Below the pieces are notes generated by a model. It worked only from the letters and a program-made list of their open reading frames with translations. It did not search any database and was not told the DNA's origin. A stretch of DNA of 39,310 nucleotides from a virus (lineage: Duplodnaviria; Caudoviricetes), in IMG/VR virus record IMGVR_UViG_3300022719_000208, positions 1-39,310 of that record. One strand, given 5' to 3'. Below are positions 4,146 to 34,257 of this stretch, one piece after another; position 1 is the stretch's first letter; each line of letters begins with the position of its first letter. A program made the position numbers and the translations under genes.

Positions 4146-4641
4146 AATGATTTGGACTAAAGGTCCTTCCTTTCGGTTCTAGGTTCCTAGGTTCTAGGTT
4201 CCTAGGTTCTAGGTTCCTAGGTTCTAGGGTTCTAATAGAGGACAAAATTTCTCCTAAAGAACTTGCTCCATAGGAGCGTGTCCCATAGGAGCGTGTCCCA
4301 TAGGGACTTGTCCCATAGGGACTTGTCCCATAGGGACTTGTCCCATAATATTTTCTTTTTGTTTTTGTGTCTATGGAAAAAAGTATTTGGGTGGCAAGTC
4401 GGTAGGGATCTTTTTCTTGGTGGGCGTGTACTTTCTTGGCAATTCGTTGACGAAGCTTTCTCTCAAACTTATTTCTTTTCCACTTACGGATTTCCCGCGT
4501 GCGGATTTCCCGCGTGCGGATTTCCCGCGTGCGGATTTCCCGCGTACGGATTTTCTGCGATGGAGTTATGAGTTCTGCTTCTCTTTCCAGCCGCCGCAAG
4601 CGTTTATCTTGTTTTTCCAGTAATCTCTTAATCACACTCAT
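4072..4641 (-). CDS. Basic hypothetical protein containing three pentapeptide arrays (EIRTR, YGTSP/YGTRS, LEPRN)
   Basis: 189-aa ORF with GAGG RBS; all three 15-bp arrays keep the frame. Confidence 0.6.
   Translation of the reverse strand: MSVIKRLLEKQDKRLRRLEREAELITPSQKIRTREIRTREIRTREIRTREIRKWKRNKFERKLRQRIAKKVHAHQEKDPYRLATQILFSIDTKTKRKYYGTSPYGTSPYGTSPYGTRSYGTRSYGASSLGEILSSIRTLEPRNLEPRNLEPRNLEPKGRTFSPNHYGKTKKEPSSSDRIRRFVPLPPPW
4175..4228. repeat. 15-bp tandem array ggttctaggttccta x3.6; hairpin CTAGG-TT-CCTAG
   Basis: Read directly. Confidence 0.95.
4261..4347. repeat. 15-bp tandem array acttgtcccataggg and variants x5.8; hairpins GCTCC-ATA-GGAGC and GTCCC-ATA-GGGAC
   Basis: Read directly. 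Confidence 0.95.
4487..4553. repeat. 15-bp tandem array cggatttcccgcgtg x4.5; hairpin CCGC-GT-GCGG
   Basis: Read directly. Confidence 0.95.
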
Positions 4642-4656
4642 AAAAAACCTCGGCTC

Positions 4657-4701
4657 TAAAAGCCTTTGGCTTAAAAGCCTTTGGCTTTAAAGCCCTTGGT
4701 G
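4657..4701. repeat. 15-bp tandem array taaaagcctttggct x2 plus a degenerate third copy; hairpin AAGCC-TTT-GGCTT
   Basis: Read directly; intergenic, just upstream of the ORF 4641 start. Confidence 0.9.
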
Positions 4702-4736
4702 CATACCCCCCCTACCCCCCATTGAAACACGAAAAT

Positions 4737-4774
4737 CTGCAAGCAGCAAACTGCACGCAGCAAACTGCACGCAG
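4737..4774. repeat. 14-bp tandem array ctgca(a/c)gcagcaaa x2.7; hairpin CTGC-AA/AC-GCAG
   Basis: Read directly; intergenic. Confidence 0.9.
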
Positions 4775-4911
4775 GAATGTGTTCTTCAGTGGAGCAGTAG
4801 GGGGGTGACCTCGGCCTTCCTTTGTTTTACTTCGCTTCAGCCGCCTAGCCCCCTGCGAAGGAGAAACTATTTTTCATCTAACGTGAGAAATCAAAAAGCA
4901 CGACAGATTGC

Positions 4912-5027
4912 CCGCAAGCGGATACTCCGCAAGCGGATACTCCGCAAGCGGATACTCCGCAAGCGGATACTCCGCAAGCGGATACTCCGCAAGCGGGAGC
5001 CCGCAAGCGGGAGCCCGCAAGCGGGAG
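4912..5027. repeat. Tandem array of 8 hairpin units: ccgcaagcggatact (15 bp) x5, then ccgcaagcgggagc (14 bp) x3
   Basis: Read directly; stems TCCGC-AA-GCGGA and CCCGC-AA-GCGGG. Confidence 0.97.
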
Positions 5028-5089
5028 GCTGTAGTCCTAGGTATATTCAAACAAAAACGAAACGCAAGAAATTTTTCTACTATTTTCGC

Positions 5090-5117
5090 TTGACATAAAA
5101 CTCCACTTCGCTATTTT
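5090..5117 (+). promoter_or_regulatory. Candidate sigma70 rightward promoter TTGACA-N16-TATTTT
   Basis: Perfect -35 and 4/6 -10, with AT-rich sequence upstream, ahead of the packaging operon. Confidence 0.5.
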
Positions 5118-5159
5118 GATTTTATCTCTTGTATGGCATCCATATCCGCCCCCCTATGG

Positions 5160-5202
5160 GCCCTGTGCCGTCTTTCCTTTCGACACGGGGCTCTTTTATT
5201 TT
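5160..5202 (+). terminator. Terminator/attenuator-like hairpin plus T tract in the leader of terS
   Basis: gccctgtgccg pairs with cgacacggggc (one mismatch, one G-U), followed by tcttttatttt. Confidence 0.5.
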
Positions 5203-5251
5203 GACTTCATTCCGTTGTAATTTTTCTTTTTTTGTTATAAATTCATTCTCT

Positions 5252-5950
5252 ATGGCCAAATTACCCAAAATTAATCTTACCGGAAAAGAGATCGAAGCTT
5301 TTTGTTGGGGCCTGACAAAAACAGATAAAAGCTTTTCCGATACTGACTTATCGCTAAATCAGAAGTTACAAAAAGCAGGAATTAGCAAAGATCAATATTT
5401 GGATTATTTGGCAAACAATCCAACCATTCGAGATCGTGCCGTTGAGGTTGCTATTGACCGCTATTTGTTGCCCTCGATTGGCTCTATTGTTAGAAATATT
5501 CGCGATCAAGCCGTAAAGGGTAAAAATCCAGCAGCTATTTCCCAGGCATTAACTATGCTAGGAAGTGTGACAAAGTTGCTAAAATCCAAGGGTGCAAGCT
5601 CCCAAGAAGGGTCAAAACACGTTCATTTGCACATTAAGTCATTGCAGGATAAGGATTTAGTGTCAAAAATGAAGGAAATTCGATCTCGACGTGAAGAGGT
5701 TATTTCTGCTTTACCAGAAGATATTCGTGCAGAATTTCAAGAGGGTGGTATGGTTTCACAAATAGCTAATAGTGATCGAACGATTTTGGAAGAAATGCGA
5801 TCTGAGCGTGAATCAAAAAAAACCATCAACAACGACCAACAAGAGACCCCCACAAAAGAGCCCCCTCAAGGAGGGAGCCCTCAAGGAGGGAGCCCTCAAG
5901 GAGGGAGCCCTCAAGGAAAAGTTTCGAAGAAAAAAACTAACCAGAGCTGA
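5252..5950 (+). CDS. terS: Putative terminase small subunit
   Basis: Immediately upstream of and overlapping terL; helical, charged protein; likely start MAKLPKIN at 5252. Call is mostly positional. Confidence 0.55.
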   Translation: MAKLPKINLTGKEIEAFCWGLTKTDKSFSDTDLSLNQKLQKAGISKDQYLDYLANNPTIRDRAVEVAIDRYLLPSIGSIVRNIRDQAVKGKNPAAISQALTMLGSVTKLLKSKGASSQEGSKHVHLHIKSLQDKDLVSKMKEIRSRREEVISALPEDIRAEFQEGGMVSQIANSDRTILEEMRSERESKKTINNDQQETPTKEPPQGGSPQGGSPQGGSPQGKVSKKKTNQS

Positions 5951-7433
5951 GCGAGACATTTTAGAGCAGCTCTATGCGGAGGAGCTTTCCCTTCAGCGAG
6001 AGGTTCAATCCAGGGGGTTAACGAAAAAGATCAACTTTTATCGTCCTCATTTCAAACAATTAGAATATCATCTTTCCGAGGCGCGTTACCGTGGTCTTTT
6101 TTGGGGCAATGGTAGCGGAAAGACTCATGCCATTTGTGCTGATGCGATTTCTCAGGCTCTAGGCTATCAGCCGTGGGATAATAAATACCGTTGCGATCCG
6201 CCGCGAAAGATTATCGTTGCCGGGGAAGATTTTATCCATTCTGTCGCTTCGAGCATCCTTCCAATATTTAAAGACATGATTCCTTCGGACATGCTCGAAG
6301 TTTCTTGGGCAGCAATGCCAAAGGTTCATTCGGGAATTCCTAACGTGATTCCTTTTAAGAACGGATCCATGATAAGTTTATTTTCCTACCACCAGGAGCA
6401 AGGATCGGTGGAAGGGTTTGACATTGATGATGCTTACTATAACGAGCCGCCGCCGGAATGGTTTAGGATTGGAATCCGGCGTGGCCTTCGGCGTCGCGGG
6501 TCTAGGGAAACATTTGCCATGACGCTTTTAAAGGAGCCTTGGATATTCGACCAAATTTATTCCAAAATTGGGAAAGATCCTGAGTTTTGGGGCAACTCTG
6601 CAACCATTTACGACAATCCCCATATTGATGAAGAGGAAAAAAGGGCATGGGTGTCTTCTTTGTCTGAAGCAGAGAAAGAGGTTCGTCTTTGGGGCAAGCC
6701 TAGATTTTTGTCTGGCAGAATATGGAAACAATTTGATCCGGCTGTTCATGTGAAGTCCAATGAGCAATTTTTCCAAGATCCCGAATTTCGAGAGCAGTTT
6801 AAAGAACTGCCCAAGGGCTTTGCCATTGATCCGGCGAGTGGTCGGCCTTTTGCAATTATTTTTTTCGCTGTAATGCCAGGCAATAACTTTGTCATATATG
6901 ATGAGTGGCCAGACTTTAAGTATAAGGGTTCCAGAGAAACAAGAACAATTGACGAATACGTTGAGATATTAAATTCGAAAAAGAAATTCCAACTTGGAGG
7001 AGATCGCATAGCTTGGCAATTTATGGATCCGAAGTACGGCAAGCAGCGTGGTAATACAGGAAGAACCCTTGTCGACGAGTTTGCCGAATGTGGATATTTT
7101 CTTGATGTTGATTTTGTTCACGACGTTGATCCTGGTCACCTTGCAGTTGACCGACTTCTCGCTTACGACAAGACAAAACCAATATCATCGACCAATAAGC
7201 CAAGGCTTTGTATTCTTTCAAATTGTGAGAACACAATTGATGCCATGCTTAAATATACTTTTGACACAAAAACTGGAAGACCTACCGAGGACTACAAGGA
7301 TTTTGGGGACTGTGTCAGGTATATGGTTCAGGGTGGTGCTGAATATTACGACCACGAAGCGCAATCAAAAAAACATAGAGAACACGCCGCTTGGCTTGCA
7401 CATGCGAATAAGATTAGAATGCTAAAGAGGTGA
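5772..7433 (+). CDS. terL: Terminase large subunit
   Basis: PHFKQ adenine-binding motif, Walker A GNGSGKT, Walker B-like AYYNEPPP, DNPHI, RNase-H nuclease motifs AIDPASGRP and DFGDCVRY. Start uncertain (GTG 5772 or 5808). Confidence 0.93.
   Translation: MIERFWKKCDLSVNQKKPSTTTNKRPPQKSPLKEGALKEGALKEGALKEKFRRKKLTRAERDILEQLYAEELSLQREVQSRGLTKKINFYRPHFKQLEYHLSEARYRGLFWGNGSGKTHAICADAISQALGYQPWDNKYRCDPPRKIIVAGEDFIHSVASSILPIFKDMIPSDMLEVSWAAMPKVHSGIPNVIPFKNGSMISLFSYHQEQGSVEGFDIDDAYYNEPPPEWFRIGIRRGLRRRGSRETFAMTLLKEPWIFDQIYSKIGKDPEFWGNSATIYDNPHIDEEEKRAWVSSLSEAEKEVRLWGKPRFLSGRIWKQFDPAVHVKSNEQFFQDPEFREQFKELPKGFAIDPASGRPFAIIFFAVMPGNNFVIYDEWPDFKYKGSRETRTIDEYVEILNSKKKFQLGGDRIAWQFMDPKYGKQRGNTGRTLVDEFAECGYFLDVDFVHDVDPGHLAVDRLLAYDKTKPISSTNKPRLCILSNCENTIDAMLKYTFDTKTGRPTEDYKDFGDCVRYMVQGGAEYYDHEAQSKKHREHAAWLAHANKIRMLKR
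5863..5917. repeat. 15-bp tandem array ccctcaaggagggag x3.7; hairpin CCCTC-AAG-GAGGG
   Basis: Read directly; lies in the terS/terL overlap (SPQGG and ALKEG repeats). Confidence 0.95.
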
Positions 7434-7434
7434 T

Positions 7435-8436
7435 ATGAAAATTTCTTTTTTTGAAGAACCATTTGAAAGGCTTCGTTGGTCTCCCACAAAAGACTACAAT
7501 AAATTTTTAGGTGGCACGCAAGAATGGCTTTGTGATTTATCTTCAGCTCTTGCCAGGAGGGGGCATATCGTTTCAGTTTATCAATTCAATAGGGGCGAGT
7601 CTTATGAAAGGTGGCGAGGAGTTTCCTTTCTAGACAGAGAAAAATTTAAAGGCGATTGTGATGTTGCAGTCTCTTGGAACAATCGTTTTTCAATTCCTAA
7701 TAATATAAAAGCCAAGAAAAAGATTTATTTTACAATTGGTTTAGAGCAATGGATGAAAGAGGTAAAATTTAATTTGGATGGAATTGATTGGATGGTTGCC
7801 TTGTCGGATTACCAAAAGGACAGTATACAAAAGCGTGTTCTAAAATATTCCACAAAGTCCCACGATGATGTTTTTAAAGTAATTTCAATCGGGGCGGGTT
7901 TGGATCGGAGCCAATTTCCAAGACGTGGCGTTAGAGATGAAAACCTTTGTCTTTATTCTTCTTCTTGGGATCGTGGCCTTGTGCGCCTTATGGCCTGTTG
8001 GCCATTTCTGAAAAGAAGTTTTCCAGAATTAAAACTAATTGTTACATATAGTAACGATTGGACAAATAGGCTTGTTGGAATAGACCACAAGGTTCCCAAA
8101 GAATGGAGGTCTCTGCCTGGTGTTGAGTTTAAAACGCCATCGAGGGAAGAAATGGGCCGATTATATAAACAGGCATCTTATCTCCTTTATCCTTGCACTG
8201 GGTCGGAAAATTTTTGTTTGACTGCTTGGAAGGCTCAATTTGCCGGTTGTTATCCCGTTACAACAAACAGGATGGCTTTAGTGGAGACAGTAAGGTGGGG
8301 GAGTTTATCAAAGAGGATTGAGGATTGGGTTTGGGACGCAAAGAAGTCGATTGAGAAAAAGGCGTTTAAGGAAAAGATTGATCTTAATTTTCCAACATGG
8401 GATGCGATTTCCAGGGCATGGGAGTCCTTGGCATGA
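7435..8436 (+). CDS. GT-B fold (GT4-like) glycosyltransferase
   Basis: GGTQ...LARRGHIVSVY N-terminus, YSSSWDRGL, and ENFCLTAWKAQFAGCYPVT (EX7E-like, K variant). Confidence 0.88.
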   Translation: MKISFFEEPFERLRWSPTKDYNKFLGGTQEWLCDLSSALARRGHIVSVYQFNRGESYERWRGVSFLDREKFKGDCDVAVSWNNRFSIPNNIKAKKKIYFTIGLEQWMKEVKFNLDGIDWMVALSDYQKDSIQKRVLKYSTKSHDDVFKVISIGAGLDRSQFPRRGVRDENLCLYSSSWDRGLVRLMACWPFLKRSFPELKLIVTYSNDWTNRLVGIDHKVPKEWRSLPGVEFKTPSREEMGRLYKQASYLLYPCTGSENFCLTAWKAQFAGCYPVTTNRMALVETVRWGSLSKRIEDWVWDAKKSIEKKAFKEKIDLNFPTWDAISRAWESLA

Positions 8437-9164
8437 AGGATGTGAAACTTAGTATTTGTATTTCTTATTGGAACAGAGGGGAGCTTTTGCGCCAGAGTTT
8501 GTCCAGAATGAAGGAACTTTACAATTCTAGGGATGGAATTGAAATATGTATTGTGGACGATGGATCAAGAGAGGGGCCTGAAAGTTTTATCCCAAAAAAC
8601 TTTCCTCTTGACGTTAAGATAGAACATCTTCCATTTCATGAGGATTTTAGATCTCCAGGAATTGCTATAAACAAAGCCGTTGATATTGCAGAAGGCAGGA
8701 TCATCGGAATTACGCAACCAGAAATTTATCATTTAACTCCTGTTGCAATTGAAGCGATTGAATTTTTTGAAACAGAAAACAGAGAAGGCTGTTGGATTTC
8801 AACCCCTACCTTTGTTATGAGGGAAAACAAAAATGAAGTTGTTATAAATTCAAGGCGAGTCGATTATGTGGATGCCGAGTTATTAATTGGTCCCAATAGA
8901 CCGGAAAGAAAGCCTATATATTATTTCGGTTCCATGTTAAAAACTGATTTTTATGGTGTCGGAAAGATAGACGAGTCATATTCTCGGAAAAATTTTGGCA
9001 ATGAAGACAATGAATTTATTGACCGTCTTGAGGACAATCTCTTTGATTTTTACTGGTCTTATGGGCATGTTGTTCATCTATGGCACGAAGGTCCTGAAGA
9101 AGTAAATCCGTTTGTTCATACTGACCGATTTTTTTGGGGGACAGAAAAATTAACAAAAAAATAG
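8433..9164 (+). CDS. GT-A fold (GT2-like) glycosyltransferase
   Basis: LSICISYWNR, ICIVDDGS, AINKAV, G.IDESY...FGNEDNEF..R, HLWH; ATGA overlap at 8433. The usual DxD position reads QPE. Confidence 0.88.
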   Translation: MKDVKLSICISYWNRGELLRQSLSRMKELYNSRDGIEICIVDDGSREGPESFIPKNFPLDVKIEHLPFHEDFRSPGIAINKAVDIAEGRIIGITQPEIYHLTPVAIEAIEFFETENREGCWISTPTFVMRENKNEVVINSRRVDYVDAELLIGPNRPERKPIYYFGSMLKTDFYGVGKIDESYSRKNFGNEDNEFIDRLEDNLFDFYWSYGHVVHLWHEGPEEVNPFVHTDRFFWGTEKLTKK

Positions 9165-9712
9165 ACTGTCAGCTTAGAAATGCTGAGTATTTGGAAGTTG
9201 TTGGGATTAATGTTTGTGCGCATACCAAACCAAAATTTCCATTTTTAGAACTTGGTTCTTTTCGTGGTGGGTCTGCTCATTATTTGATTAAGGCCTTAAA
9301 CCATGAAAACCGAAATAGGGAACTTTGGTGCGTCGATCCATATGATAATCCACAAAATTATCTTAATGCAGATCCGGAGGAGCTAAAAAAATCTTTGAAT
9401 GATATTTTATCTACTTATGGAAATTGTCGACATTTTGAAAAAACTTCCGATGATTTTTTTAAGGAGGCGAAGGGCAGACATTTTTCACTGATTTTAATTG
9501 ACGGATTGCATACTCCAGACCAAATGAGGCGTGATCTTGATCATTCTATCGAGCATTTAGCTCCTGGAGGTGTTATTTTTGTTGATGACATTGACTGGGT
9601 TCCCGATTTTTCTCAATACGTTAAAGAAAGGTGTAAGCGTTTTGCTATTGAGTGGATTAGAAGTGAAGGAAAAATTATTCAAGCTGTTGTTTTTTCAAGT
9701 AGTCAAATATGA
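9134..9712 (+). CDS. Class I SAM-dependent methyltransferase (Methyltransf_24-like, sugar/small-molecule O-MTase type)
   Basis: LELGSFRGGS, WCVDPY, LILIDGLH, LAPGGVIFVDD; start uncertain. Confidence 0.87.
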   Translation: MGDRKINKKIDCQLRNAEYLEVVGINVCAHTKPKFPFLELGSFRGGSAHYLIKALNHENRNRELWCVDPYDNPQNYLNADPEELKKSLNDILSTYGNCRHFEKTSDDFFKEAKGRHFSLILIDGLHTPDQMRRDLDHSIEHLAPGGVIFVDDIDWVPDFSQYVKERCKRFAIEWIRSEGKIIQAVVFSSSQI

Positions 9713-10800
9713 GTGATGGAATTTATAGCGCCACAAAGGCTTATCAGTTTCCGCTAAAAATAAAGGAATTGCAATCCGGTTGTCAGCCGTATCCTGTTCA
9801 TGTGCAACTTATATTGAGCGATCTTTGCCAGCATGATTGTAGTTTTTGTGCATATCGCATGTCTGGCTATACAAGCAATCAATTGTTTCCTGATAATGAT
9901 GGCAATTCCAATCCGAATAGAAAGATTCCCGAGCCAAAGGTGATAGAAATTTTGGAGGATTGTGTTGCTATGGGCGTAAAGGCAGTACAGTTAACAGGGG
10001 GTGGTGAGCCTACGATTCATAAATCGCTTCCTTTGGTGTTGGATTTTTGTCACGCTCATGGAATTAAGTCTGGGCTGGTTACTAATGGATGCGTTTTACC
10101 AAGACGTAATTGGTGGTCTAGCCTTATGAATCTTTCCTGGGTACGAATATCTCTTGATGCGGGGAAAAGGGAAACCTATTGCAAGATTAGGAAGGTCAAA
10201 TCGCATATGTGGAAAGATGCCCTTAGGGCTATTTCTCAATTTTGTGAAAATCGAGATATGCTTGGTCGAGATATTGTCGTTGGGGTTGGGTTTGTCGTGA
10301 CCAAGGAAAATTATGAAGAAATTTTCCGAGCAACTAAATTGGCCAGGTCCTTAGGTGCTGATAATATTAGGATTTCTGGTGTTTTTTCCACTGAGGGTGA
10401 AAATTATTTTAAGGGAAACTGGGCCAAGCGAGCTATAAACATGGCAAAGGAAGCCGAAAGTCTTTCTACAACAGAGTTTACAGTTCATAATCGATTAAAT
10501 GAAAAGATACAAGAGCTTATGAGTGGCTCGCCAAAGCGTTCCTTTTGCGGTTACCAGCATTTTACTACTTATATTGGTGGTGATCAAAACGTATATCGTT
10601 GTTGTGTCTATGCTTACAACAAAAGGGGGCTTATAGGTTCAATACAAAAGCAGGGCTTTAAGCAGCTTTGGGATAGCGAGAAAAAGCGTGATAATATGGC
10701 TTGGTTCGATGCTAAGGGTTGTTCGCATTGTCAATTTTTAGATCGAAATGATGCCATTGCCAAGGCCGTTGATCAGCAAAAACATTCCGAATTTGTCTAA
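9709..10800 (+). CDS. Radical SAM enzyme with C-terminal SPASM/Twitch-like Cys domain
   Basis: CQHDCSFC (CX3CX2C), TGGGEP, VTNG, RISLDAG; C-terminal C...VYRCC...IGSI...CSHC. Confidence 0.93.
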   Translation: MSDGIYSATKAYQFPLKIKELQSGCQPYPVHVQLILSDLCQHDCSFCAYRMSGYTSNQLFPDNDGNSNPNRKIPEPKVIEILEDCVAMGVKAVQLTGGGEPTIHKSLPLVLDFCHAHGIKSGLVTNGCVLPRRNWWSSLMNLSWVRISLDAGKRETYCKIRKVKSHMWKDALRAISQFCENRDMLGRDIVVGVGFVVTKENYEEIFRATKLARSLGADNIRISGVFSTEGENYFKGNWAKRAINMAKEAESLSTTEFTVHNRLNEKIQELMSGSPKRSFCGYQHFTTYIGGDQNVYRCCVYAYNKRGLIGSIQKQGFKQLWDSEKKRDNMAWFDAKGCSHCQFLDRNDAIAKAVDQQKHSEFV

Positions 10801-10818
10801 ATTCTTTTCTTGCAACGC

Positions 10819-10847
10819 TTGACAACGAAAGTGCATTTGAGTATAAA
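10819..10847 (+). promoter_or_regulatory. Sigma70 promoter TTGACA-N17-TATAAA upstream of portal
   Basis: Perfect -35, 17-bp spacer, 5/6 -10, in a 102-bp intergenic gap. Confidence 0.75.
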
Positions 10848-10902
10848 TCTGCGCTTGAGCGGGCTATATCTATATGTTGTGTTATGGCTTGTTTGAGGCA
10901 CA

Positions 10903-13023
10903 ATGGCAAAAGAGTCACCAATCGTAGAGCAAGAAGCTGATATCACATCTCGGCGTGATATTATACCTTTTCTAAAAGATTTGCGTAAGCAGACGATTAC
11001 CGATGAGAGCAATCGTGCCGAGTGGGATGCTAAAAATGAAGAGTGGTATGCAAGGCGTTATGCTGAAGTAGATAAAGACCTTGCTTATCCTTGGCCTGGA
11101 GCGTCCAACATTTGGATTCCCATGTCCGATATGTTGATTGACAAGGTAAAACCGTCTTTATTAAACCTATACACTCAACCCAATCCCATTGTTCATTTCC
11201 GTCCCAGGCAACCCATTTCGTTTGATCGCGCCCGAAAACTGGAACTTTTTTATGATTGGGGTTGGCGCACGAGCATGAGGGGAGCGGTGGACGAGTTTTC
11301 CTATGCTATGGATAGTATGCTCGAAACAGGCTGGGGGGCCCTAATGACGACGTATGCTTACCAAACAGAAGCTACTACGCTTGTAATTCATAAAAAATTT
11401 TTACCTCCTCCACTAAATCGCTTTCAAGTGGTCAAGTCTGATCTTGCAGCCAATACAATTCGTCAGATAAGCGGTGGACAGATAAATCCCATAACGAAAG
11501 ACCAGTTCGATCAAAATATTGCCTTAATTGAGGATACAGTTCGAAGGCTTTATGGTCTTCAAGAGGACGATCCAATGGATCGCAAGGCTCTTTCCAAGAT
11601 TGTTAGGTTTTTGCGAAATAATGAAAAAGAGGTTCGTGTCGATCTTAGAAGTGAAATTGAAAACTCTCCACAGATTGTTTCAATTAACACCGAAGATTTG
11701 ATTTTGCCGGAATGGACACAAGATATTCAGAAATTAGATCGTGCAACTATTAAAATGAGGATGACGCCACAGGCAATGATGCGTCGTATTGATGACGAGG
11801 ATTGGGACAAAGATGCAGTTGAAAGAGCAATAAATAACAAGCGGGCCAGAACGGATAAGTCTTTTGGTCCATTTAATCCACGGTCTCAGCTTCAAGCGGA
11901 GCGTGAGGGAATTACATCCCAAGAAAGCGAAGATACCGTAGAGGTTTGGGTTAGTTGGTGTTATTACGATTATGATCGTGATTCAAGAAATCGCCTTTCG
12001 GTTGCAATGTATCAGCCTAGTACGATGGATGTTTTTAAGTTTATACAAAATCCATTCAAACACGGTCAAATTCCAATCACTATATTCCCATATGAATTAA
12101 ACAAGCGTCGCCTTTATGATTCTCGTGGCATTCCAGAAAAAATTCGTGATATGGAAGAGGAGGTGGCATGGCAGCATAGAATGAAATTGAACAATGGCAC
12201 AATAAAAACCAATCCATCGCTTGGTATTGTTCAAAGGAACAATTTAGAGCCAATTCATTTGAAGTTCCTGCCGGGAGAAATGATTCCTATGAAACAACAA
12301 GGTGATATTCAGCCAATAAATTTTGGCGCGGATACATCGTTGTTTCAGGAGCGAGAAGAGCTATTGCTTCGAAATTTTATGGAAGCATATGTAGGTTCTC
12401 CTGATTTGGCTCTAACTTCTTTGCAGGGCCAGCAATCTCAGTCAAAAACAGCAACCGAGATTGCTACCATCCAGGAATTAAGCCAGGTTTCTCTTTCATA
12501 TCATGCCACAATCGTACAGCAAAGAATGCAACGGGTTCATGGGCAGGTATGGGATCTTTGGAATCAGTTTGGGCCTGATGAGTTTTTCTTTCGTTTAACA
12601 GGAGAGAATCCTGTCAGGCTTACAAAATATGAAATGCAGGGAAACTTTGATATCATCCCTCGTGGCTCTGTGGGAACGACAAACCCAATTTTAGAGGAGC
12701 AAAGGGCATTAAACCGCCTCACTGTTGCGGCTCAGATTGTAAAGCCAGTTATTGATAATGATCCTGAAGCCAGATTCCAGATTGATATGGTGGAATTGGC
12801 TCGTGACTGGTTTCAAAAATCGGATCTTTTGCTTTCTGAAAAGGTTCTTCGGCGCATTCCAGAAGAGGAGCGCCGAGAAATTTTGGCGCGCCGCAATCAA
12901 TCGCAACAAGAGAGGCGGGCTCTTGAGTCTGGGCAGCCTATTTCATTGGAACGTGCCGCACAGCTTGCTGATAAGGTATCCAAGGAAGCTCCAAAGGGAG
13001 GTGACCAATTAGTTACTCTTTAA
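10903..13023 (+). CDS. Portal protein (P22-like/podoviral)
   Basis: 706 aa; PWPGASN, YDSRGIPEKIRDM, KTATEI motifs typical of large podoviral portals; GAGG RBS; position before scaffold and MCP. Confidence 0.87.
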   Translation: MAKESPIVEQEADITSRRDIIPFLKDLRKQTITDESNRAEWDAKNEEWYARRYAEVDKDLAYPWPGASNIWIPMSDMLIDKVKPSLLNLYTQPNPIVHFRPRQPISFDRARKLELFYDWGWRTSMRGAVDEFSYAMDSMLETGWGALMTTYAYQTEATTLVIHKKFLPPPLNRFQVVKSDLAANTIRQISGGQINPITKDQFDQNIALIEDTVRRLYGLQEDDPMDRKALSKIVRFLRNNEKEVRVDLRSEIENSPQIVSINTEDLILPEWTQDIQKLDRATIKMRMTPQAMMRRIDDEDWDKDAVERAINNKRARTDKSFGPFNPRSQLQAEREGITSQESEDTVEVWVSWCYYDYDRDSRNRLSVAMYQPSTMDVFKFIQNPFKHGQIPITIFPYELNKRRLYDSRGIPEKIRDMEEEVAWQHRMKLNNGTIKTNPSLGIVQRNNLEPIHLKFLPGEMIPMKQQGDIQPINFGADTSLFQEREELLLRNFMEAYVGSPDLALTSLQGQQSQSKTATEIATIQELSQVSLSYHATIVQQRMQRVHGQVWDLWNQFGPDEFFFRLTGENPVRLTKYEMQGNFDIIPRGSVGTTNPILEEQRALNRLTVAAQIVKPVIDNDPEARFQIDMVELARDWFQKSDLLLSEKVLRRIPEEERREILARRNQSQQERRALESGQPISLERAAQLADKVSKEAPKGGDQLVTL

Positions 13024-13034
13024 ACGACGTTGCA

Positions 13035-13394
13035 TTGGATCATTTGGGAAGGCTTCGCGAAAAAGAGCGAGAGGCTATTTTTGAAGAAATTCAGAAGGCA
13101 AAGGATTCTGAGTCTGTTTCAATTTATCTTCAATTTCAAATGGAATGGCTTGTAAAGCTTGTTGGGATGTTGCTTACAGGCTCTTTTTCTTCTTCTCGTG
13201 AGTGTGAGGAAGTTACTATACGAGCGCAAACACTTTTTTCCAATATGCAGATATTGGACGATAAAAAATTAGAGTTATATGACGTTGTGGCGTCTGTTTT
13301 GCGACAACAAAAAAAATATAAAGAGGGTTCTTTTGGCATAAAGCACGGGGATACTATTTCCAGGCTGAAAGGATTGCGAAATGGTTCTCGATAG
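13035..13394 (+). CDS. Hypothetical protein following portal
   Basis: 119-aa ORF, TTG start, fills the gap in the head operon. Confidence 0.6.
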   Translation: MDHLGRLREKEREAIFEEIQKAKDSESVSIYLQFQMEWLVKLVGMLLTGSFSSSRECEEVTIRAQTLFSNMQILDDKKLELYDVVASVLRQQKKYKEGSFGIKHGDTISRLKGLRNGSR

Positions 13395-15543: not shown

Positions 15544-15963
15544 ATGGAAAAGAAAAATACAATCAGGAAGGAAGGGGCATTGGCCCCTTCTTTCCACATC
15601 AATAAATCTGATCAAAGCTGGGTTGACGAATATATTGAATCTGTTTTTAGGAACTGGATTCATAATTGGCGCGATGAGTACAAAGATTTTAAAGCTGCAA
15701 TGGAAGTAGAGCGAGATCGTTATGACTATCGAGGAAGTTTTACGAACTTGGCCTACATGTCAAAAGAAAAAGATCGAGAAATTGTCGGCTTTGTTCCAAA
15801 GGGTTTGAATTTGATTATGACTAGTGTTTTTGGAGATGACTGGAATTTTAATCAATTTGTTTCAAATAGATTTTGGTATAAATTTGATTTAGGGCGTTTG
15901 CGTAAGGAAAAGCCTGGCCGTCCCGGCCCTGGAGAGAAAAGGATAGTTCGATATGAATCCTAA
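15544..15963 (+). CDS. Hypothetical protein downstream of MCP
   Basis: ATG at 15544, 8 nt after the MCP stop; overlaps the next gene start. Confidence 0.65.
   Translation: MEKKNTIRKEGALAPSFHINKSDQSWVDEYIESVFRNWIHNWRDEYKDFKAAMEVERDRYDYRGSFTNLAYMSKEKDREIVGFVPKGLNLIMTSVFGDDWNFNQFVSNRFWYKFDLGRLRKEKPGRPGPGEKRIVRYES
15566..15595 (+). terminator. Hairpin after MCP (terminator or mRNA-stabilising stem)
   Basis: gaaggggc-attg-gccccttc perfect 8-bp stem, extendable to 13 bp; T tract is short. Confidence 0.55.
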
Positions 15964-18409
15964 AAATATATCTCTTGGGCTTTCAATCATTACCAAAGAC
16001 AAACACAGAGAGCTTCGGCGCTTATTAAAAACTTGTAAAGAGGTTAACTTCGACGAAATTGTTGTTTTGGATACAGGTTCCAAAAAGCCAACAGATACGA
16101 AAAATGTTTGCCAGAAATTCGGTGCCGAGTTTTATTCATATCATGAAAATCCACACGTCAAAGAAACCAAGCAATTTGGTCATATTTTTGATTTTGGTCA
16201 CGCAAGAAATACAGCCCTTTCCAAAATGACGACAGATTATGTCATGTGGCTTGATAGTGATGATGAGCTTCGAAATGGAAATCTTGTAAGGCCACTTCTT
16301 GCCAAGGTGATTGATAGTGGCAAGGAAGGCATTTCTGCCTATTACCTTTATGCGAAAGACGAACATGGCAATGTTCATACGGAGCAATGGCGGGAGAGAA
16401 TTTTTCCAAGAAACAGAGTTCGTTGGTATCCGTTTGTCCATGAGATTTGCATGGAAAAGGAAGGAGAGTCGCCGCTTGAACTTGAATTTCTTTCCAAAAT
16501 GAATTCTCCATGGGTTGAACATGATTGTGTAATTAAGCCTACGAACCGTTCAGATCGAGATATTAGAAACCTTAGGATTATTGATTTCCATAAAAAGAGA
16601 AACAATGGAAAGCTAGAATCTAGGATGTGGCATTACGCTGGGAAATCTTTTATGGGCTTGAATCAGTGGAAAGCGGCAATAGGTGCATTTGAGGAACATT
16701 TAAAAGAATCTGGATCCGAAATGCATCGCTATGATTCATTGATTTGCCAGGCTGAATGCTACCAAAAAATGAAACTTTGGGATATGGCTAGGGGGACAGC
16801 TTTTCGTGCCGTTGCAGAGCAACCAAAATGGCCCCAAGCCTGGACATCTCTTTGTATAACTTGTATGGAAATGAGGCGTTGGGATGATGTTTTGTTCTAT
16901 AACTCTGTTGGCCTTCTTTGTGAGGAAGATACTTCAACATATAGCTTTTCTCCAATCATGGTTAGAAAAGGTTTAGGTATTACAAGGCACCGGGCTCTTA
17001 CCGAGATAGAACATCACGAAGAGGCCAGGGATGTTATGGCGGCTCTTCATCGTGATTTTCCAAAAGATCCCGAATTCAAGAGATTATATGAGATATCAAC
17101 GAGCTTGTTGCGTGATGCAAAAAAAGCGTCGCATTGGTCTGAAATTATGAATGAGCTTGTATCCGAGGACCGGGGATTTGACGAAAGAGCGGAAGAGTTG
17201 GCAAGGCTTGCTCCAAAAAGCGTAAAACAATTTAACAAATGGTCATTTCTAAAACGCAAAGAACCGCCTTGCGACAGACCGTCTTTGGCAATTATATGTC
17301 CTGGTTCTAGGCCATTGTTCGGGCCTTCTTCTTTAAACAAAGGTATTGGTGGGTCTGAGGAAGCTGTAATACATTTGTCTAAGGCTCTTTCGGATCGGGG
17401 TTACTATGTTGATGTTTTTAGGGAAACAAATGAAGAGGGAGAACATGATGGTGTTCGCTGGTATCCATTTGCGGCGATACGAAAAAAGGATCGCTATGAT
17501 GTTGTTATAGGTTGGCGAAACCCTGATATTTTTGAAACTCGTTATCCGAATGCGAGAACAAACGTTCTTTGGTGTCATGACATTCCCGTTCCTGGCCAGA
17601 TTAAACCATATCACGTTAAAAACATTGATTATGTAATGGCTCTTTCTAAGGACCATGCTCAGTATTATGATGGAATCGTTCCTAAAGAAAAAATTATTAT
17701 TACAAGAAACGGCTTAAGTTCCAGTTGGTTTGCTGATCCTAAAAACAATCCAAAGAAAGTTATTTATGCAAGTAATCCAACAAGAGGCCTTTGGAATCTT
17801 TTTCATATTTGGCCGAATGTTTTCAAAATAACCGGGGCAGAGCTTCATTTTTTTTATGGGTTTACTGATTGGCATAAAGCCATAGTAGCGCACCAGCCCA
17901 GGGAGCAAATGCTTATGGTGGATATGAGAAATCGTTTTAGCGAGCTTGTAAGGCAAGGACACAAAATTTTCGACCATGGTATGGTTGGCCATAATGAGCT
18001 TCATAAGCATATGGCAAGTTCTGGTGTTTGGGCTTATCCAACATCATTCCCGGAAACAAATTGTTTGACGGCTTACAAAATGCAGGCTCATGGTGCCGTT
18101 CCGGTTACTTCGAGATATGCGGCTTTGAATGAATCCGTACAATGGGGTGAGAAAGTTGGTCATCAAGAAATTCCAACAATGGAACCAGAAAGCCAAGATT
18201 TAAAAGTTTTTGAGGATAAGTTAATCAATATGATTCTTGATGCAAACAAGCAGAAAGACATAAGAAAGGATATGATTCCATGGGCGAGGAAACATTTAAC
18301 TTGGGAGGAAGTAGCGGATCAGCTATGGGAGGTTTTCGAGGAGGGGAAAAAGGATCGGATGGTTTTGGTGCCTCCAGCGCCAATGAATCTAATCCTATCC
18401 GAGAGCTAA
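15953..18409 (+). CDS. Multidomain glycosyltransferase: GT2 (SunS/flagellin-GT-like) + TPR + GT4-like
   Basis: DEIVVLDTGS, DFGHARN, WLDSDD, RERIF, VHE; TPR-like helical repeats; GIGGSEEAV, YASNPTRGL, ETNCLTAYKMQAHG. Confidence 0.92.
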   Translation: MNPKNISLGLSIITKDKHRELRRLLKTCKEVNFDEIVVLDTGSKKPTDTKNVCQKFGAEFYSYHENPHVKETKQFGHIFDFGHARNTALSKMTTDYVMWLDSDDELRNGNLVRPLLAKVIDSGKEGISAYYLYAKDEHGNVHTEQWRERIFPRNRVRWYPFVHEICMEKEGESPLELEFLSKMNSPWVEHDCVIKPTNRSDRDIRNLRIIDFHKKRNNGKLESRMWHYAGKSFMGLNQWKAAIGAFEEHLKESGSEMHRYDSLICQAECYQKMKLWDMARGTAFRAVAEQPKWPQAWTSLCITCMEMRRWDDVLFYNSVGLLCEEDTSTYSFSPIMVRKGLGITRHRALTEIEHHEEARDVMAALHRDFPKDPEFKRLYEISTSLLRDAKKASHWSEIMNELVSEDRGFDERAEELARLAPKSVKQFNKWSFLKRKEPPCDRPSLAIICPGSRPLFGPSSLNKGIGGSEEAVIHLSKALSDRGYYVDVFRETNEEGEHDGVRWYPFAAIRKKDRYDVVIGWRNPDIFETRYPNARTNVLWCHDIPVPGQIKPYHVKNIDYVMALSKDHAQYYDGIVPKEKIIITRNGLSSSWFADPKNNPKKVIYASNPTRGLWNLFHIWPNVFKITGAELHFFYGFTDWHKAIVAHQPREQMLMVDMRNRFSELVRQGHKIFDHGMVGHNELHKHMASSGVWAYPTSFPETNCLTAYKMQAHGAVPVTSRYAALNESVQWGEKVGHQEIPTMEPESQDLKVFEDKLINMILDANKQKDIRKDMIPWARKHLTWEEVADQLWEVFEEGKKDRMVLVPPAPMNLILSES

Positions 18410-25287: not shown

Positions 25288-25295
25288 ATATAGTA

Positions 25296-26563: not shown

Positions 26564-26566
26564 TTT

Positions 26567-27648: not shown

Positions 27649-27650
27649 AC

Positions 27651-28712: not shown

Positions 28713-28720
28713 GAGTTTAA

Positions 28721-29836: not shown

Positions 29837-29838
29837 TA

Positions 29839-32800
29839 TTGGTTGTTGAGCAAAAAAATCCGCAAAAACAAGCGCCAAAAACTTTTGAGCGTGGATTTTT
29901 ATCTAATGTGATTAAGGATCTTCTTGTAAGGCTGGATGGCGATCCAGATCGTGTTCAAAAAGCCTTAATGCCACAATTTGGCGATATTGTTAAAAGGGAT
30001 CTTGAGGCTAGAGAGGTAACGCAGCGATATATTGAACCACCAGAAGATTTTAGAGGATTAATAGGCAGTCTTTTTCTTGATCCTCTTGAGGGCAAAACGC
30101 AAGAAGAAACCGTTCGTGCTTGGGTTATTAAAACCATGCAGGATAACGGATTTGAAAACATACCCAAAACAAAAACAAATACCAGATTTACAAAAGAGGA
30201 GCTATTAGTACGCCCATTAAATTCTTTGGTCCAACAATACCGCCTTGCCGACTTTACTGTAAAAGAATTTAATCGAATCAAACCATTTGCAGACAAATTT
30301 GTAGAAGTTGAGGATTTTTTATCAGAGAGTTTAAATGCTAACTACGAGTCTCTTAAAGAGATCATGTCCAGTCCGTCCAATCTGATTGAAACCAATCCTG
30401 AAATTCCCGGAATAGTAGCACAAACATTTGGGCTTCTTATTGATACTCCTAATTCTGCTCTGGCGAGCCAACTTTCACGAAAAAGGGGATATGTGGTTGA
30501 GGATTTACGATCCAGATTTGAGTTTAATAAAAATACAAGATTGGTGCTAAAGAATGTATTTGATCCCGCCAAGGGCAAAAGGGTGGGAAAAAATGTAAGG
30601 GAAAATGCGCAGGGTCAAGAGGTTCAACACCAGCCAGAATTTTTGGTTTCTCAAGATCCATTAACGGCTGCTATGGTTTTAGGTCGTATGCTTGAATCGA
30701 ATGGGGATCCGAGCCAAGTTGACTTGAGAGATATTCAGAATCGTATAGGAACATTTGCAGACGCGAAAATTCAAGACGAGTCCCTAACGCCCGATTTGAT
30801 TCCTCTGACAGGAAACAAGGCTGGCTTTTTAAGTGGAAATCCTACTATCCAAGAAAGGCTTACCGATCCACTGGCTGCAATAATGAGCGCTGGTCTTTCG
30901 CAAAACCTCCCAACATTACAAGAAGTTTCTAACAGGCGTCTTGATTCCGAGGTTCCTGGTGAAATCGCAGAATTTATCATACCTTTTGGTCCTTCTCTTT
31001 TTCGCGGCCTTATAAGAGCGCCTGGTCGTATTTTTCAAAAAGGTATTCGTCAGGAAGCTAAACGTGTAGCTTCTGGTGTTATCAATAAAAATTTGGGTTT
31101 GCTGACAAAGGCGGAAAGAAGGAACATTTCCAAGGGTCTTATTGCCGAGAAATCATTTTTAGTAGATGCTGGGATCGAAAAGGGGACCAAAGAAATCCTA
31201 AAGCGTCTTGATAGAATTTCTGGCGAAACAAGAATTCACCGTGGGTTTACGGCTGGTGGAAATGAAAAAAGGTTTATTTTTCAATCGAAGGAAACCGAAG
31301 AAGCGTTTCAACAAGGAAGTTTGGTTGTTCTTCCTGGCCAAGCTGGCCTTAGGTCTTTTAATGTTGAAAAAATCTCAGGATTAGAGGCGTTTAAGAAAGC
31401 CACTTCAAGGGGTTCATTGCCATTTTTGAAGCGTGGAACTTTTGGTGACATTCGAAAAGAAAAGCTTGAATTTGACAAAGTTGTTGGTATTTCAGCCTTT
31501 AATACGGACCTTGTAATTAAGAAATATCTTTCTGCTGGGGAAAAACAATTTGGGAAAATGTCACAATCCCATAAGGATGTTTTTTGGAAAAAGGTTCTCC
31601 TGGATGATCTTGAGCATGAGGTCAAAATTGGGAATCAACTTCCTTCGCCTTGGACGCCAGCGAAGGTTCGGCAGGAAATGCAAAGAATCAAGTCATCGGA
31701 TATATTTAAAGACGGAAGGGTCCAAGCGGCACTTAAATCCAGGAGTAAATTTTGGAGAGAATTTAGAGAAACCTATATTTCTGAAATGGAAGCTATAGGT
31801 CTTGATGTATCCCAGATAAGGAATAACCCTAATTATTTTCGCCACCAGGTTGTTGATTTGTCGCATATACAATCCGAATTGAGCCGCAATATTTCCAAAA
31901 AAGCAAGGAAACCAAGGGGGCAATCCTTCCTAAAGGAAAGAAAGGGATCGAATCTGCCGATTCAAACCGGTCCATTGCCTGAAGCTCAAGTTATCCGAGG
32001 CATGTTTAATGACATATCGACAGCGAAGTTTATTAAGGCTTTTGATAAACACAACAAAATAAAGGAGTCCGTAAGAAAGGCGAAAAAATTCCGCAAGGCA
32101 AACAAAGAGGCTATAAAGTCTGGCAAGGTAAGAAGTAAAACTTATGAAGATTTTATTCCTGAGGGCCATTCGATATACAACCTGGACGATCAAAGAGCTT
32201 TTTTTTCTACAAACACAATATCGGACAGGGTCCTAAAAGAATTAGGCGAACTAAACCTAACAAGTTTAGGTGTTAGCGCAGACGATATCAAAAAAATGAC
32301 AGCGCGCGGCCTTGTTATGGGGAAAAAGAAATTTCCCATGGTATTGCCAGATCCATTAGTTAAAACTCTAAACCAATTGGAAAAAGACGCTATTGCAAAT
32401 GCCGTTGATCCAAATTCCTTGAATTTCTTTTTGGAAAAAGCGACTTCGCTCTATAAGGAATGGATATTAACCAGTCCAATTCGAATATTGGAATATAACG
32501 CTAACAACGCGACATCAGATCTTTTCAAGACGGTACAATTCAATCCTAAGGCCCTTCGTCCTGATTTTATTATGAGATCTATCAGAGAAATGTTCCCCTT
32601 GGTATCTGGAAATTACCAAAATTTGACAAATGATGCAGTTGATTTTGCGCGAAAGGGTGGTTTTTTCTCAGCATCACGAATTCATGAGCTTGGTGGAATT
32701 AAAGACTTAAAAAGACTTCAGCGTATGTTTAAGCTCGGAAATTTGCCCAAAACAGATGGTGAATTTTTATCGTTTGTTAATGGTATACGGCAAAATACTC

Positions 32801-34257
32801 AACTTCTTACCGATTACCGAGAAATGATCCTTAGATATTCAAACTTTTTATCCATTAACGATGATCTGTTTCGTTCCGGTGGAAAGGTAACTAAATATTA
32901 TGCGAGCAATCCCAGAGAGGTAGACGCTCTAGCGACAATAGGTGACAAGGCATACAAAATGTCTCAGGACATGTTAGGCAGGTTTGATGATTTGGCACCA
33001 ATAACGGCGAAGTCAAAAAGAGGTTTAATTCCGTTTGCTTCCTGGAAACAAGTGAATGCCGAGAGTTACATTAATGGATTTGCAAACATGGTTGTTGGAG
33101 AAAAAGAATCGACAAAGGTTCTTAAAAAACTTGGCTTCCAGCTTCCAGTCACGCTTGTGGGCGCTGCTTCGAAAACTGCGGTACGTTTAGGTGCCTTTTC
33201 TCTTAAGGCATCAATCCCTTATGGGATATCCTATATGTGGAACAATACGGGATGGAGGGCTGAACTTGAAAGCGATCTTTCAAGGGAAGACAAAATCAGG
33301 CCCCACATTTGGGTGCCATATGCTGGTAGCGAAAACGACGCTCAGCAAAAAGTCAATATTCCACGGAGAGGCGGCCGAGCCGCAGGCGGCCGAGCCGCAG
33401 GCGGCCAAGCCGCAGGCGGCCAAGCCGCAGGCGGTAAAACCAAAGAAATCAAGGTTCCAAGAGGATATTATCAGCCGTGGGAGGAGGCGCTTTTTGATTT
33501 CAGCCGTTGGTTTGGGGGAGAGCGGATTCCTGGATTCTGGGAGGATCTAAAATATGGGAAAATCAATCTTGGTGAGTTTATGGCGGAGGTTGGTGGAAAA
33601 CAGCCTCTAAACCAGATCTACCAGGGTGTCAACCCATTTGTCAAATTTCCGATTGAGGGTATATTTCGTCAAAATACATTCCCTGATATATGGAGAACAC
33701 GTCCCATAAAGGACGATCAGCATAAGTTTTGGAGAATTTTGGCCCTGGGTGATGCCTATAGGGTGGCAACAGGAACGCCTACACGTCAGGACTTAGATAG
33801 TGTTATGGATGTGTTTTTTAAAAAGGTCGTTCCAAAGGAAAGGGCATTCTATCAATATAGAGATGAGGTTAGGGAGTTTCTTCGTCAAAATGGGCGGGAT
33901 GTTACAGTTATTACCGATTCTCCCCTATCCGATGTTCGTTGGCATATGTATCAAGCAGCCCGTGCTTCGGACGTTGAAAACGGACTAGATCACGCCGAGG
34001 AGCAGTACAGAAAATGGATTATCAATGGCGGCAATCCGGCCAAAATAATTTCAAACTTCAAAAATTTTCATCCAGATAATAATATCCCAAAAGACCTTCG
34101 TGCTAAATGGCTAAAAGAAATGACACCAGAAACAAAGCGGCTTAGGGGCATAGCAAACCAATGGTTTCAAATTGATTTTTTAAATAAGGCGAAGTTTTAC
34201 AAAAAACTCGGACAGAGATTGAAGGCAAAGGGAAACGTGATAAAAGGGAAAAAATAG
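29839..34257 (+). CDS. Large internal virion/ejection protein (gp16-like; C-terminus reminiscent of large polyvalent protein domains)
   Basis: 1472 aa, last of the ejection cluster; NPNYFRHQV, LIPFASW, VNPFVKFPIE motifs; TTG start with GAGGG RBS. Confidence 0.7.
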   Translation: MVVEQKNPQKQAPKTFERGFLSNVIKDLLVRLDGDPDRVQKALMPQFGDIVKRDLEAREVTQRYIEPPEDFRGLIGSLFLDPLEGKTQEETVRAWVIKTMQDNGFENIPKTKTNTRFTKEELLVRPLNSLVQQYRLADFTVKEFNRIKPFADKFVEVEDFLSESLNANYESLKEIMSSPSNLIETNPEIPGIVAQTFGLLIDTPNSALASQLSRKRGYVVEDLRSRFEFNKNTRLVLKNVFDPAKGKRVGKNVRENAQGQEVQHQPEFLVSQDPLTAAMVLGRMLESNGDPSQVDLRDIQNRIGTFADAKIQDESLTPDLIPLTGNKAGFLSGNPTIQERLTDPLAAIMSAGLSQNLPTLQEVSNRRLDSEVPGEIAEFIIPFGPSLFRGLIRAPGRIFQKGIRQEAKRVASGVINKNLGLLTKAERRNISKGLIAEKSFLVDAGIEKGTKEILKRLDRISGETRIHRGFTAGGNEKRFIFQSKETEEAFQQGSLVVLPGQAGLRSFNVEKISGLEAFKKATSRGSLPFLKRGTFGDIRKEKLEFDKVVGISAFNTDLVIKKYLSAGEKQFGKMSQSHKDVFWKKVLLDDLEHEVKIGNQLPSPWTPAKVRQEMQRIKSSDIFKDGRVQAALKSRSKFWREFRETYISEMEAIGLDVSQIRNNPNYFRHQVVDLSHIQSELSRNISKKARKPRGQSFLKERKGSNLPIQTGPLPEAQVIRGMFNDISTAKFIKAFDKHNKIKESVRKAKKFRKANKEAIKSGKVRSKTYEDFIPEGHSIYNLDDQRAFFSTNTISDRVLKELGELNLTSLGVSADDIKKMTARGLVMGKKKFPMVLPDPLVKTLNQLEKDAIANAVDPNSLNFFLEKATSLYKEWILTSPIRILEYNANNATSDLFKTVQFNPKALRPDFIMRSIREMFPLVSGNYQNLTNDAVDFARKGGFFSASRIHELGGIKDLKRLQRMFKLGNLPKTDGEFLSFVNGIRQNTQLLTDYREMILRYSNFLSINDDLFRSGGKVTKYYASNPREVDALATIGDKAYKMSQDMLGRFDDLAPITAKSKRGLIPFASWKQVNAESYINGFANMVVGEKESTKVLKKLGFQLPVTLVGAASKTAVRLGAFSLKASIPYGISYMWNNTGWRAELESDLSREDKIRPHIWVPYAGSENDAQQKVNIPRRGGRAAGGRAAGGQAAGGQAAGGKTKEIKVPRGYYQPWEEALFDFSRWFGGERIPGFWEDLKYGKINLGEFMAEVGGKQPLNQIYQGVNPFVKFPIEGIFRQNTFPDIWRTRPIKDDQHKFWRILALGDAYRVATGTPTRQDLDSVMDVFFKKVVPKERAFYQYRDEVREFLRQNGRDVTVITDSPLSDVRWHMYQAARASDVENGLDHAEEQYRKWIINGGNPAKIISNFKNFHPDNNIPKDLRAKWLKEMTPETKRLRGIANQWFQIDFLNKAKFYKKLGQRLKAKGNVIKGKK
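33369..33434. repeat. 15-bp tandem array aggcggcc(g/a)agccgc x4.4; hairpin GCCGC-AG-GCGGC
   Basis: Read directly; encodes GGRAA/GGQAA in frame. Confidence 0.95.

Follow-up and report, generated by a model that had tools for sequence, protein, structure and literature searches.

Ten arrays of 14–15-bp dyad units in a Caudoviricetes contig: a putative panel of decoy iterons

Introduction

The 39,310-bp viral contig IMGVR_UViG_3300022719_000208 (Duplodnaviria; Caudoviricetes), classed as linear and ~84% complete, carries short tandem arrays whose 14–15-bp units each contain a small dyad. This raises the question of what has fixed both the period and the dyad, and what such arrays might do for a phage. 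The whole contig was analysed and is referred to here as the window. The ten arrays found in it are real and unusual, and they may constitute a putative panel of decoy iterons that would titrate the initiators of rival phages or prophages in the host, a reading to which a probability of about 0.35 is given on the grounds of sequence features and of analogy with known phage origins. The arrangement is best filed as new and the kind of element as known, the role of the arrays being putative.

Array census and dyad anatomy

All eight arrays of the original prediction were present at the positions and with the units given for them, and two more, array 3511 and a collapsed one at 3394, brought the number of loci to ten (Table 1). 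An exact scan of periods 5–40 gave nine runs at period 15 and two at period 14; only protein-type 12-nucleotide (nt) repeats appeared at period 12, and periods 10, 11, 13 and 16–40 gave nothing beyond 30-nt doubles of the period-14/15 runs. A degenerate scan allowing up to three mismatches per unit gave 11 clusters at period 15, two at period 14 and none at periods 16–25, adding arrays 3394–3428 and 3511 (ending at ~3556–3561); weak matches at 3939 and 37976 were dropped as probable chance. The five arrays inside open reading frames (ORFs) all have 15-bp units, and 14-nt units occur only outside ORFs (Fisher P = 0.17). Nine of the ten arrays lie within the 2.5 kb that separates the divergent gene arms, where the GC skew turns.

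The units follow a common plan of a ~5-bp arm, 2 nt, the complementary arm and 2–3 nt, so that both registers are able to pair. A stem of 4–5 bp was found in every array unit, with per-unit shuffle P values of 0.013–0.12 and a combined shuffle P of 1.2e-5 over nine loci; among arbitrary 15-mers of the contig, 11.7% reach a stem of at least 4 bp. In a control set of 636 fetched loci (5.5 Mb), period-15 arrays without the search motif had stems in 18 of 145 cases vs 17.0 expected and period-14 arrays in four of 21 vs 2.9 expected, and over periods 12–18 the stem frequency was not above that of shuffles. Since these control arrays show no hairpin excess, the hairpin trait appears specific to this genome, in agreement with the earlier argument that ordinary slippage does not explain a fixed period together with a dyad. 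Elsewhere in the genome, 46 GC-rich hairpins are unduplicated, including 15 with stems of at least 5 bp. The hairpin phase at array starts and ends is not constant, and several arrays contain odd numbers of arms.

Two generalisations about the units had to be narrowed. They had been described as all different in sequence, which does not hold for the core CCGCANGCGG, common to three arrays (exactly 15 occurrences, all within arrays 4487, 4912 and 33369 and always on the gene-sense strand), nor for the GGGAC/GTCCC arms common to arrays 3394 and 4268; at least four arm types are present among the arrays. The claim that every loop starts with A rested on a free choice of strand and register, and what stands on the gene-sense strand is that nine of ten arrays have one A-starting loop. 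The loop letters on that strand are A:T = 32:7 (hand count; P = 0.0009), and the strand that carries the A-rich loops changes from - to + between 4700 and 4737. Folding energies gave no separation of the two strands. Changes inside arrays are either compensated in the stem (4912, 4268 and the end units of 5863 and 33369) or confined to loops.

The read-level comparison used Logan contigs, in which run X1 is the probable source run of the contig and is not independent of it; runs X2 and X3 have little or no coverage of the array region. The X1 assembly holds 97% of the sampled words of 3400–9400. Its main contig is one unit shorter at 4294 (array 4268), a difference that graph simplification could have caused. 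Array 3394 is longer in the probable source run than in the contig, with loose ends at 3396, 3424 and 3428 and a summed depth near 3400 of 226, compared with 44–64 in neighbouring bins. Around array 4487, an X1 contig ends at 4508 and an 8-base loose end precedes 4532, and the 31-mer graph points to a variant three units shorter; a break at 4658–4686 suggests that array 4657 is longer in X1. Overall, the contig breaks in X1 indicate that copy-number variants are present, and the unit numbers per array in the contig are uncertain.

Similarity to initiator linkers and other known systems

A likeness to the arrays was found in the linkers of phage initiators of the helix-turn-helix (HTH)-DnaD type. 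When array 4487 was compared by BLAST with phage records, all five matched records were in initiator genes (GBSV1, Bacillus phage 1 and, weakly, fHoEfm07), and in the Geobacillus phage GBSV1 (NC_008376) a 15-bp dyad array is located between the HTH and DnaD domains of the initiator. For array 4912, the two main DNA matches were a microvirus VP2 gene and the linker of an HTH_36 + DnaB_2 protein of Lactobacillus phage phiEF-1.1 (MF041990), whose initiator lies upstream of a loader-type ATPase; the array unit and the linker unit are identical at 13 of 15 bases.

Among homologues of HTH-DnaD initiators, 55 of 58 have a linker with a period of 5 amino acids (aa), and in linker DNA the best lag was 15 in 52 of 54 distinct segments, the top segment being in many of them an adjacent AT-rich repeat and not the dyad array. 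Units of the form CC-N6-GG-N5-CC occur in 46 of 66 distinct linkers, with spacers that are 70% A on the coding strand, and chained dyads under a strict rule were found in 24 of the 66 as against none of 77 upstream control stretches. The arms differ between phages, with compensation. In many of the HTH-DnaD initiator genes (L639–L718), a second, AT-rich 15-bp repeat follows right after the dyad array, and close relatives among these genes differ in unit number. A model built from 120 linker units placed five of 11 contig (sub)arrays in the top 0.02–0.2% of genome 15-mers, each scoring best on the gene-sense strand. Position and the analogy with lambda suggest that the HTH-DnaD linker arrays may be origin iterons; no experimental test of them as origins was found in the literature, searched mostly without subscription papers. 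The original statement that no phage system of this form has been described was too strong, given that HTH-DnaD phage initiator genes routinely contain 15-bp dyad arrays and that the lambda iterons are tandem inverted repeats inside gene O (PMC7466680). Being close to universal in the large HTH-DnaD initiator family, the 15-bp dyad arrays and their compensated arms offer a handle for predicting origins and initiator specificity.

The contig arrays share with these linkers the 15-bp period, dyad units of 5+2+5+3, an A-rich coding-strand spacer, compensated arms and a variable copy number. However, each initiator gene carries a single dyad array within its own sequence, with imperfect copies and an AT-rich tract after it, whereas the contig has ten arrays of several arm types outside initiator genes, with near-perfect copies and flanks that are not AT-rich (0.30–0.70 AT in the 30 nt downstream vs a median of 0.80 and a minimum of 0.57 in initiator genes, n = 32). 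The lambda ori iterons ITN1–4 (NC_001416) also repeat a dyad in tandem, its centre A-rich on the sense strand, and the arms of iteron 1 are those of array 5863, but they are spaced at 20–24 bp, have one specificity and lie at the single locus in gene O. The arrays are iteron-like in anatomy and are not a standard origin, as they lie outside an initiator gene, lack an AT-rich flank and have at least four arm types.

Borg repeats are also genome-specific, fast-changing, frame-preserving, A-biased and made mostly of unique units, but in the accessible part of PMC9879509 no single fixed unit length is described, hairpins are given for some units only, and Borgs encode a PolB. RAYT/REP elements (REPtrons) resemble the arrays through one locus, L593, where a RAYT-like gene lies between inverted 15-bp arrays of the same core; the contig, in contrast, has no Y1 match or HUH-Tyr motif and no shared terminal tag, and it has several arm types. 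A CRISPR array was rejected because the units stand head to tail without spacers and no CRISPR family matched the arrays in 1900–6100, and target-site duplication by a casposon or integrase because no insert lies between the copies and no Cas1 match was found among the ORFs scanned.

Relatives and similar arrays in other genomes

The best terminase match of the contig was 44% identical and one capsid match, 80% identical, was on a contig of only 1.1 kb; close relatives were found neither via terminase or capsid in viral contigs nor via a two-sequence terminase alignment in metagenomes. Arrays of 14/15-bp hairpin units were absent from 80 distant terminase loci, and a comparable panel was absent from other genomes among the matches listed in the pattern scans, with at most two or three arrays per locus. 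Distinct SCAAGS period-15 units had a 4-bp stem in seven of 135 cases among the matches listed, and the fourth stem pair of CGCAAGCG arrays was present in 25/72, 8/38 and 22/87 vs ~0.25 expected, giving no general hairpin bias. Five genomes showed no enrichment of the GCCGCAAGCGGC core over control, and the initiator profile matched one of 401 genomes of one phylum. Two matches of one pattern scan were set aside, the one of the two that was read looking like an ordinary protein repeat. A distant terminase relative (L035) carries hairpin duplications of 22 bp (3987–4032) and 16 bp (8940–8974), and an unrelated podovirus-like contig (L331) has two 15-bp dyad arrays, a perfect 22-bp array of five units and inverted 9-bp arrays upstream of the terminase genes (regions 6371–6775, 7662–7698 and 9997–10064 for all of these).

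Interpretation of the arrays

If the arrays are decoy iterons, HTH initiator dimers would bind the dyads as duplex DNA at 15-bp spacing, so that the period would be set by protein spacing and the hairpin would be only the dyad. Different arm types would address different initiators, in an existing array ordinary slippage or unequal recombination would adjust the copy number, and initiator binding without an unwinding element would inhibit replication instead of starting it. The reading draws on the period, the dyad anatomy, the A-rich coding-strand spacers, the linker match of two arrays, the several arm types and the lack of an initiator domain on the contig. Specifically, scans of 34, 28 and 16 ORFs turned up nothing recognisable as an initiator, polymerase, primase or helicase, neither HTH_36 nor an initiator N-terminus was found on the contig, and the initiator profile matches the array repeat stretch only, in a reading frame that contains stops. 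There is precedent for inhibition by origin DNA. According to PMC3349717, lambda replication is still inhibited by iterons that lack the AT-rich part, oop RNA being needed too. In phage-encoded resistance (PER; e.g., the Sfi21 ori), an extra origin copy blocks phage DNA accumulation and origin DNA acts as a copy-number-dependent sink for phage replication proteins (PMC6356513), although PER supplies one whole origin in the host and involves no multi-specificity panel on the phage genome. No description of a multi-specificity iteron panel was found in the literature, within the same limits of access. The original prediction had allowed that the units are selected hairpin-binding sites; selected sites fit better than its duplication process, as duplex dyads and not as folded hairpins. 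A wider version, in which a diversified library of origin mimics, tuned in copy number, would titrate or hijack competitors' initiators alongside a lone CRISPR-repeat mimic, is conceivable at somewhat less than even odds. If the decoy reading is true, it would mean phage competition by non-coding protein sponges against rival initiators, a natural multi-target PER and DNA-only weapon in which the arm types name the rivals.

Several results weigh against this reading. Six of the 11 contig (sub)arrays do not fit the linker-unit model, and any GC-rich dyad starting with CC scores well because the model forces CC..GG. DNA searches with arrays 4175, 4268, 5863, 33369, 3394 and 3511 gave no initiator matches, and searches in protein mode gave weak ones only; the GGGAC/GTCCC pattern was found in 9/401 and 1/401 genomes, fewer than a reversed control, and none of the 31 host ORFs of same-core arrays elsewhere is an initiator, these being ordinary proteins. 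Arrays of similar build occur in other settings, namely two 15-bp C-AA-G dyad arrays in non-initiator ORFs of L331 and the arrays around the RAYT-like gene of L593 (191–1083), derived from the top of a longer hairpin and with the core as in array 4912. The sharing of stems among the ten arrays has a chance probability of 0.03–0.07, which is marginal, two arrays are inside late genes, and with no close relative found the arrays have no conservation to point to. Moreover, the phage's own initiator gene may be missing from the contig because this is linear and ~84% complete.

Functionless, hairpin-biased expansion remains the main rival, if a rather unlikely one. It would be a genome-specific mutational signature in which phage replication or repair expands minimal stable hairpins via slipped-strand loop-out or an uncut 5' flap, the period being that of the smallest stable hairpin plus 2–3 nt and 15 being kept in genes through frame selection. 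Such a process would account for near-perfect copies in variable number, for their presence in tolerant places including protein tails and loops, for the confinement of 14-nt units to sites outside ORFs and for the fact that no unduplicated GC-rich mini-hairpin is left in 3100–5250 (0 in 1529 nt). It would also be in line with the same array anatomy in L331 and L593, with the fit of several cores to the stable DNA loop motifs d(gCNNGc)/d(cCNNGg) (from a title cited in PMC3201870), with the resistance of folded flaps to FEN1 and the expansions that they drive (PMC12708500) and with the genome-specific, A-biased and frame-preserving Borg repeats. On the other hand, neither the other arrays nor the fourth pair of the CGCAAGCG arrays show a general hairpin bias, the 46 GC-rich hairpins mentioned above (15 of at least 5 bp) stayed unduplicated, no array has a period of 12, 13 or 16–18, no phage polymerase was recognised among the scanned ORFs to cause slippage, and the agreement of the arrays with initiator linkers in period, polarity and sequence would have to be coincidental. 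If right, this explanation would make the contig a clear example of a replication system whose slips measure 14–15 nt and are biased to hairpins. A duplication by an enzyme with a ruler, in which RusA, terminase or a host HUH/RAYT nicks the strands ~15 nt apart around a dyad and fill-in and joining make the duplicate, is very unlikely. RusA and an exonuclease are encoded, making the RusA-like resolvase and the exonuclease candidate means for array capture or expansion; a dyad of 12–13 nt plus one base on each side makes 14–15, the arrays cluster near the terminase genes, and one RAYT locus (L593) lies between inverted 15-bp arrays of the same core. Against this stand the inconstant phase of array ends with odd arm numbers in several, the duplication of hybrid, poorly paired units as well (4268), the lack of a Y1 or Cas1 gene on the contig, a RAYT motif in one of all loci scanned and 80 terminase-related loci without such arrays. 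The nick-and-fill or fixed slip-back process of the original prediction is not supported, since the array phase is not constant, the 15 longer GC-rich hairpins were left single and no candidate enzyme that measures out 15 nt emerged. The 5'-CC cutting rule of RusA predicts periods of 10–13 and not 15 and was set aside.

The arrays could instead be the phage's own origin together with auxiliary copy-control iterons for a loosely specific initiator encoded in the missing part of the genome, the odd arms being drifted or relic. Consistent with this, one exact core occurs in three arrays, always on the sense strand, arrays 3511, 4737 and 5863 differ from the core CCGCANGCGG by compensated changes, nine of ten arrays lie in the 2.5 kb between the divergent arms at the GC-skew turn, and the contig is ~84% complete. 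Initiator iterons of the HTH-DnaD type, however, sit in the initiator gene with an AT-rich flank, neither of which is true here, the contig has neither HTH_36 nor an initiator N-terminus, and the arms of 4175, 4268, 4657 and 3394 are unrelated yet perfect, so that this explanation is distinctly improbable. A phage without an initiator might alternatively use the arrays as origins fired by the initiators of prophages or co-infecting phages; this hijacking would suit the lack of recognised initiator, primase, helicase and polymerase genes among the scanned ORFs, the several arm types and the moderately A/T-rich tracts after 4487, 4657, 4912 and 5863, but the absence of an initiator is not claimable on an 84% contig and the array flanks reach at most 0.70 AT vs the initiator-gene median of 0.80, which makes it a very unlikely explanation. 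Binding of initiators in one of these three ways, as decoys, own origin or hijacked origins, is on the whole probable. An artefact of assembly or amplification might be suspected from the single well-covered run, the copy numbers that differ between assemblies and an exact, frame-breaking 61-bp duplication at 39074–39195. Yet the same words appear in the output of a second assembler, which reads through 4268 and 4737, and the degenerate, compensated and frame-preserving units, with their strand polarity, need in vivo evolution and make an outright artefact extremely unlikely; artefacts can alter copy numbers, not the existence of the arrays.

Genome context and other observations

Genes recognised on the contig include large terminase, SU10-like portal, capsid, adaptor proteins, glycosyltransferases, RusA and exonuclease (Table 1). 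From ~5.2 kb the late genes point to the right, and from ~4.6 kb the early genes point to the left; the GC skew turns near 5 kb and 35 kb.

Table 1. Arrays and neighbouring or array-bearing ORFs in the 39,310-bp window
Position	Strand	Feature	Remarks
3394..3428	.	Array 3394: dyad array, GGGAC/GTCCC arms	~2.3 units in contig; absent from the original prediction; degenerate scan
3511..3561	-	Array 3511: degenerate 15-bp array, CCGT-AA-ACGG type	Absent from the original prediction; matches initiator-linker unit model, score in top 0.07% of genome 15-mers
4072..4641	-	189-aa ORF with three arrays in frame	No family or HTH match; possibly not a genuine gene
4175..4234	-	Array 4175: 15-bp array, CCTAG-AAC-CTAGG-AA	3.6 exact copies; initiator-linker model not matched
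4262..4347	-	Array 4268: 15-bp array, GGGAC-AA-GTCCC-TAT	End unit compensated (GCTCC/GGAGC)
4480..4559	-	Array 4487: 15-bp array, core CCGC-AC-GCGG	Phage DNA matches solely in initiator genes
4653..4700	-	Array 4657: 15-bp array, AAGCC-AAA-GGCTT-TT	Immediately upstream of ORF 4072–4641; weak initiator-model fit
4737..4774	+	Array 4737: 14-bp array, CTGC-AA/AC-GCAG	
4911..5027	+	Array 4912: compound array, core CCGC-AA-GCGG	15-bp units followed by 14-bp ones, in which a stem base changes from T-A to C-G with compensation
5129..5950	+	ORF upstream of TerL, holds array 5863	Small terminase by position only; no family match
5772..7433	+	Large terminase (TerL; Terminase_6N)	Anchor for relative searches
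5863..5917	+	Array 5863: 15-bp array, CCCTC-AAG-GAGGG-AG	In frame, tail of ORF upstream of TerL
29839..34257	+	1472-aa ORF, holds array 33369	Internal virion protein by size/position only; no family match
33369..33441	+	Array 33369: 15-bp array, core CCGC-AG-GCGG	In frame in 1472-aa ORF; last unit degenerate, dyad still in register
34726..35121	+	RusA-like resolvase	
35691..36626	-	Exonuclease	

The ORF at 4072–4641 gave no usable match in Atlas. In the early arm, a high-GC, DHH-like ORF at 1167–2078 provided no lead; two paralogous ORFs, 472–1170 and 2104–2850 (-), with Ala-rich repeats of 9, 12, 33 and 87 bp, flank this DHH-like gene and a lone CRISPR repeat. The latter, a solitary CRISPR-type repeat at 2092–2128 (+), lies between two early genes and antisense to them. 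It matched Rfam CRISPR-DR16 at 27.5 bits (E 0.002), below the gathering score, and had no plasmid match; near-identical CRISPR repeats with different spacers are present in contigs of runs X2 and X3, and a further CCCATTGAARC, at 4718, is no more than chance would give. The solitary repeat is a candidate RNA anti-CRISPR and possibly a second mimic beside the arrays.

Differences between X1 and the contig lie within 83–237 and at 360, 1518, 2912 and 3145, and comprise a half-depth cluster, mostly G>A, at 192–237 and several at full depth in 1–3400; as none are listed in 5888–12000, the early arm appears more variable. At the other end of the contig, the 61-bp tandem duplication shifts the frame of an ORF starting near 39262 and is probably an assembly join artefact, and a degenerate 12-bp repeat at 38373–38655, with open frames on both strands and no hairpin, is unrelated to the arrays. 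Between the terminase and portal genes, at 7435–10800, lie glycosyltransferase, methyltransferase and radical SAM genes, and the region after the capsid gene, 15953–18409, encodes a large GT2-TPR-GT4 protein; the glycosyltransferase genes in these two regions possibly serve virion glycosylation.

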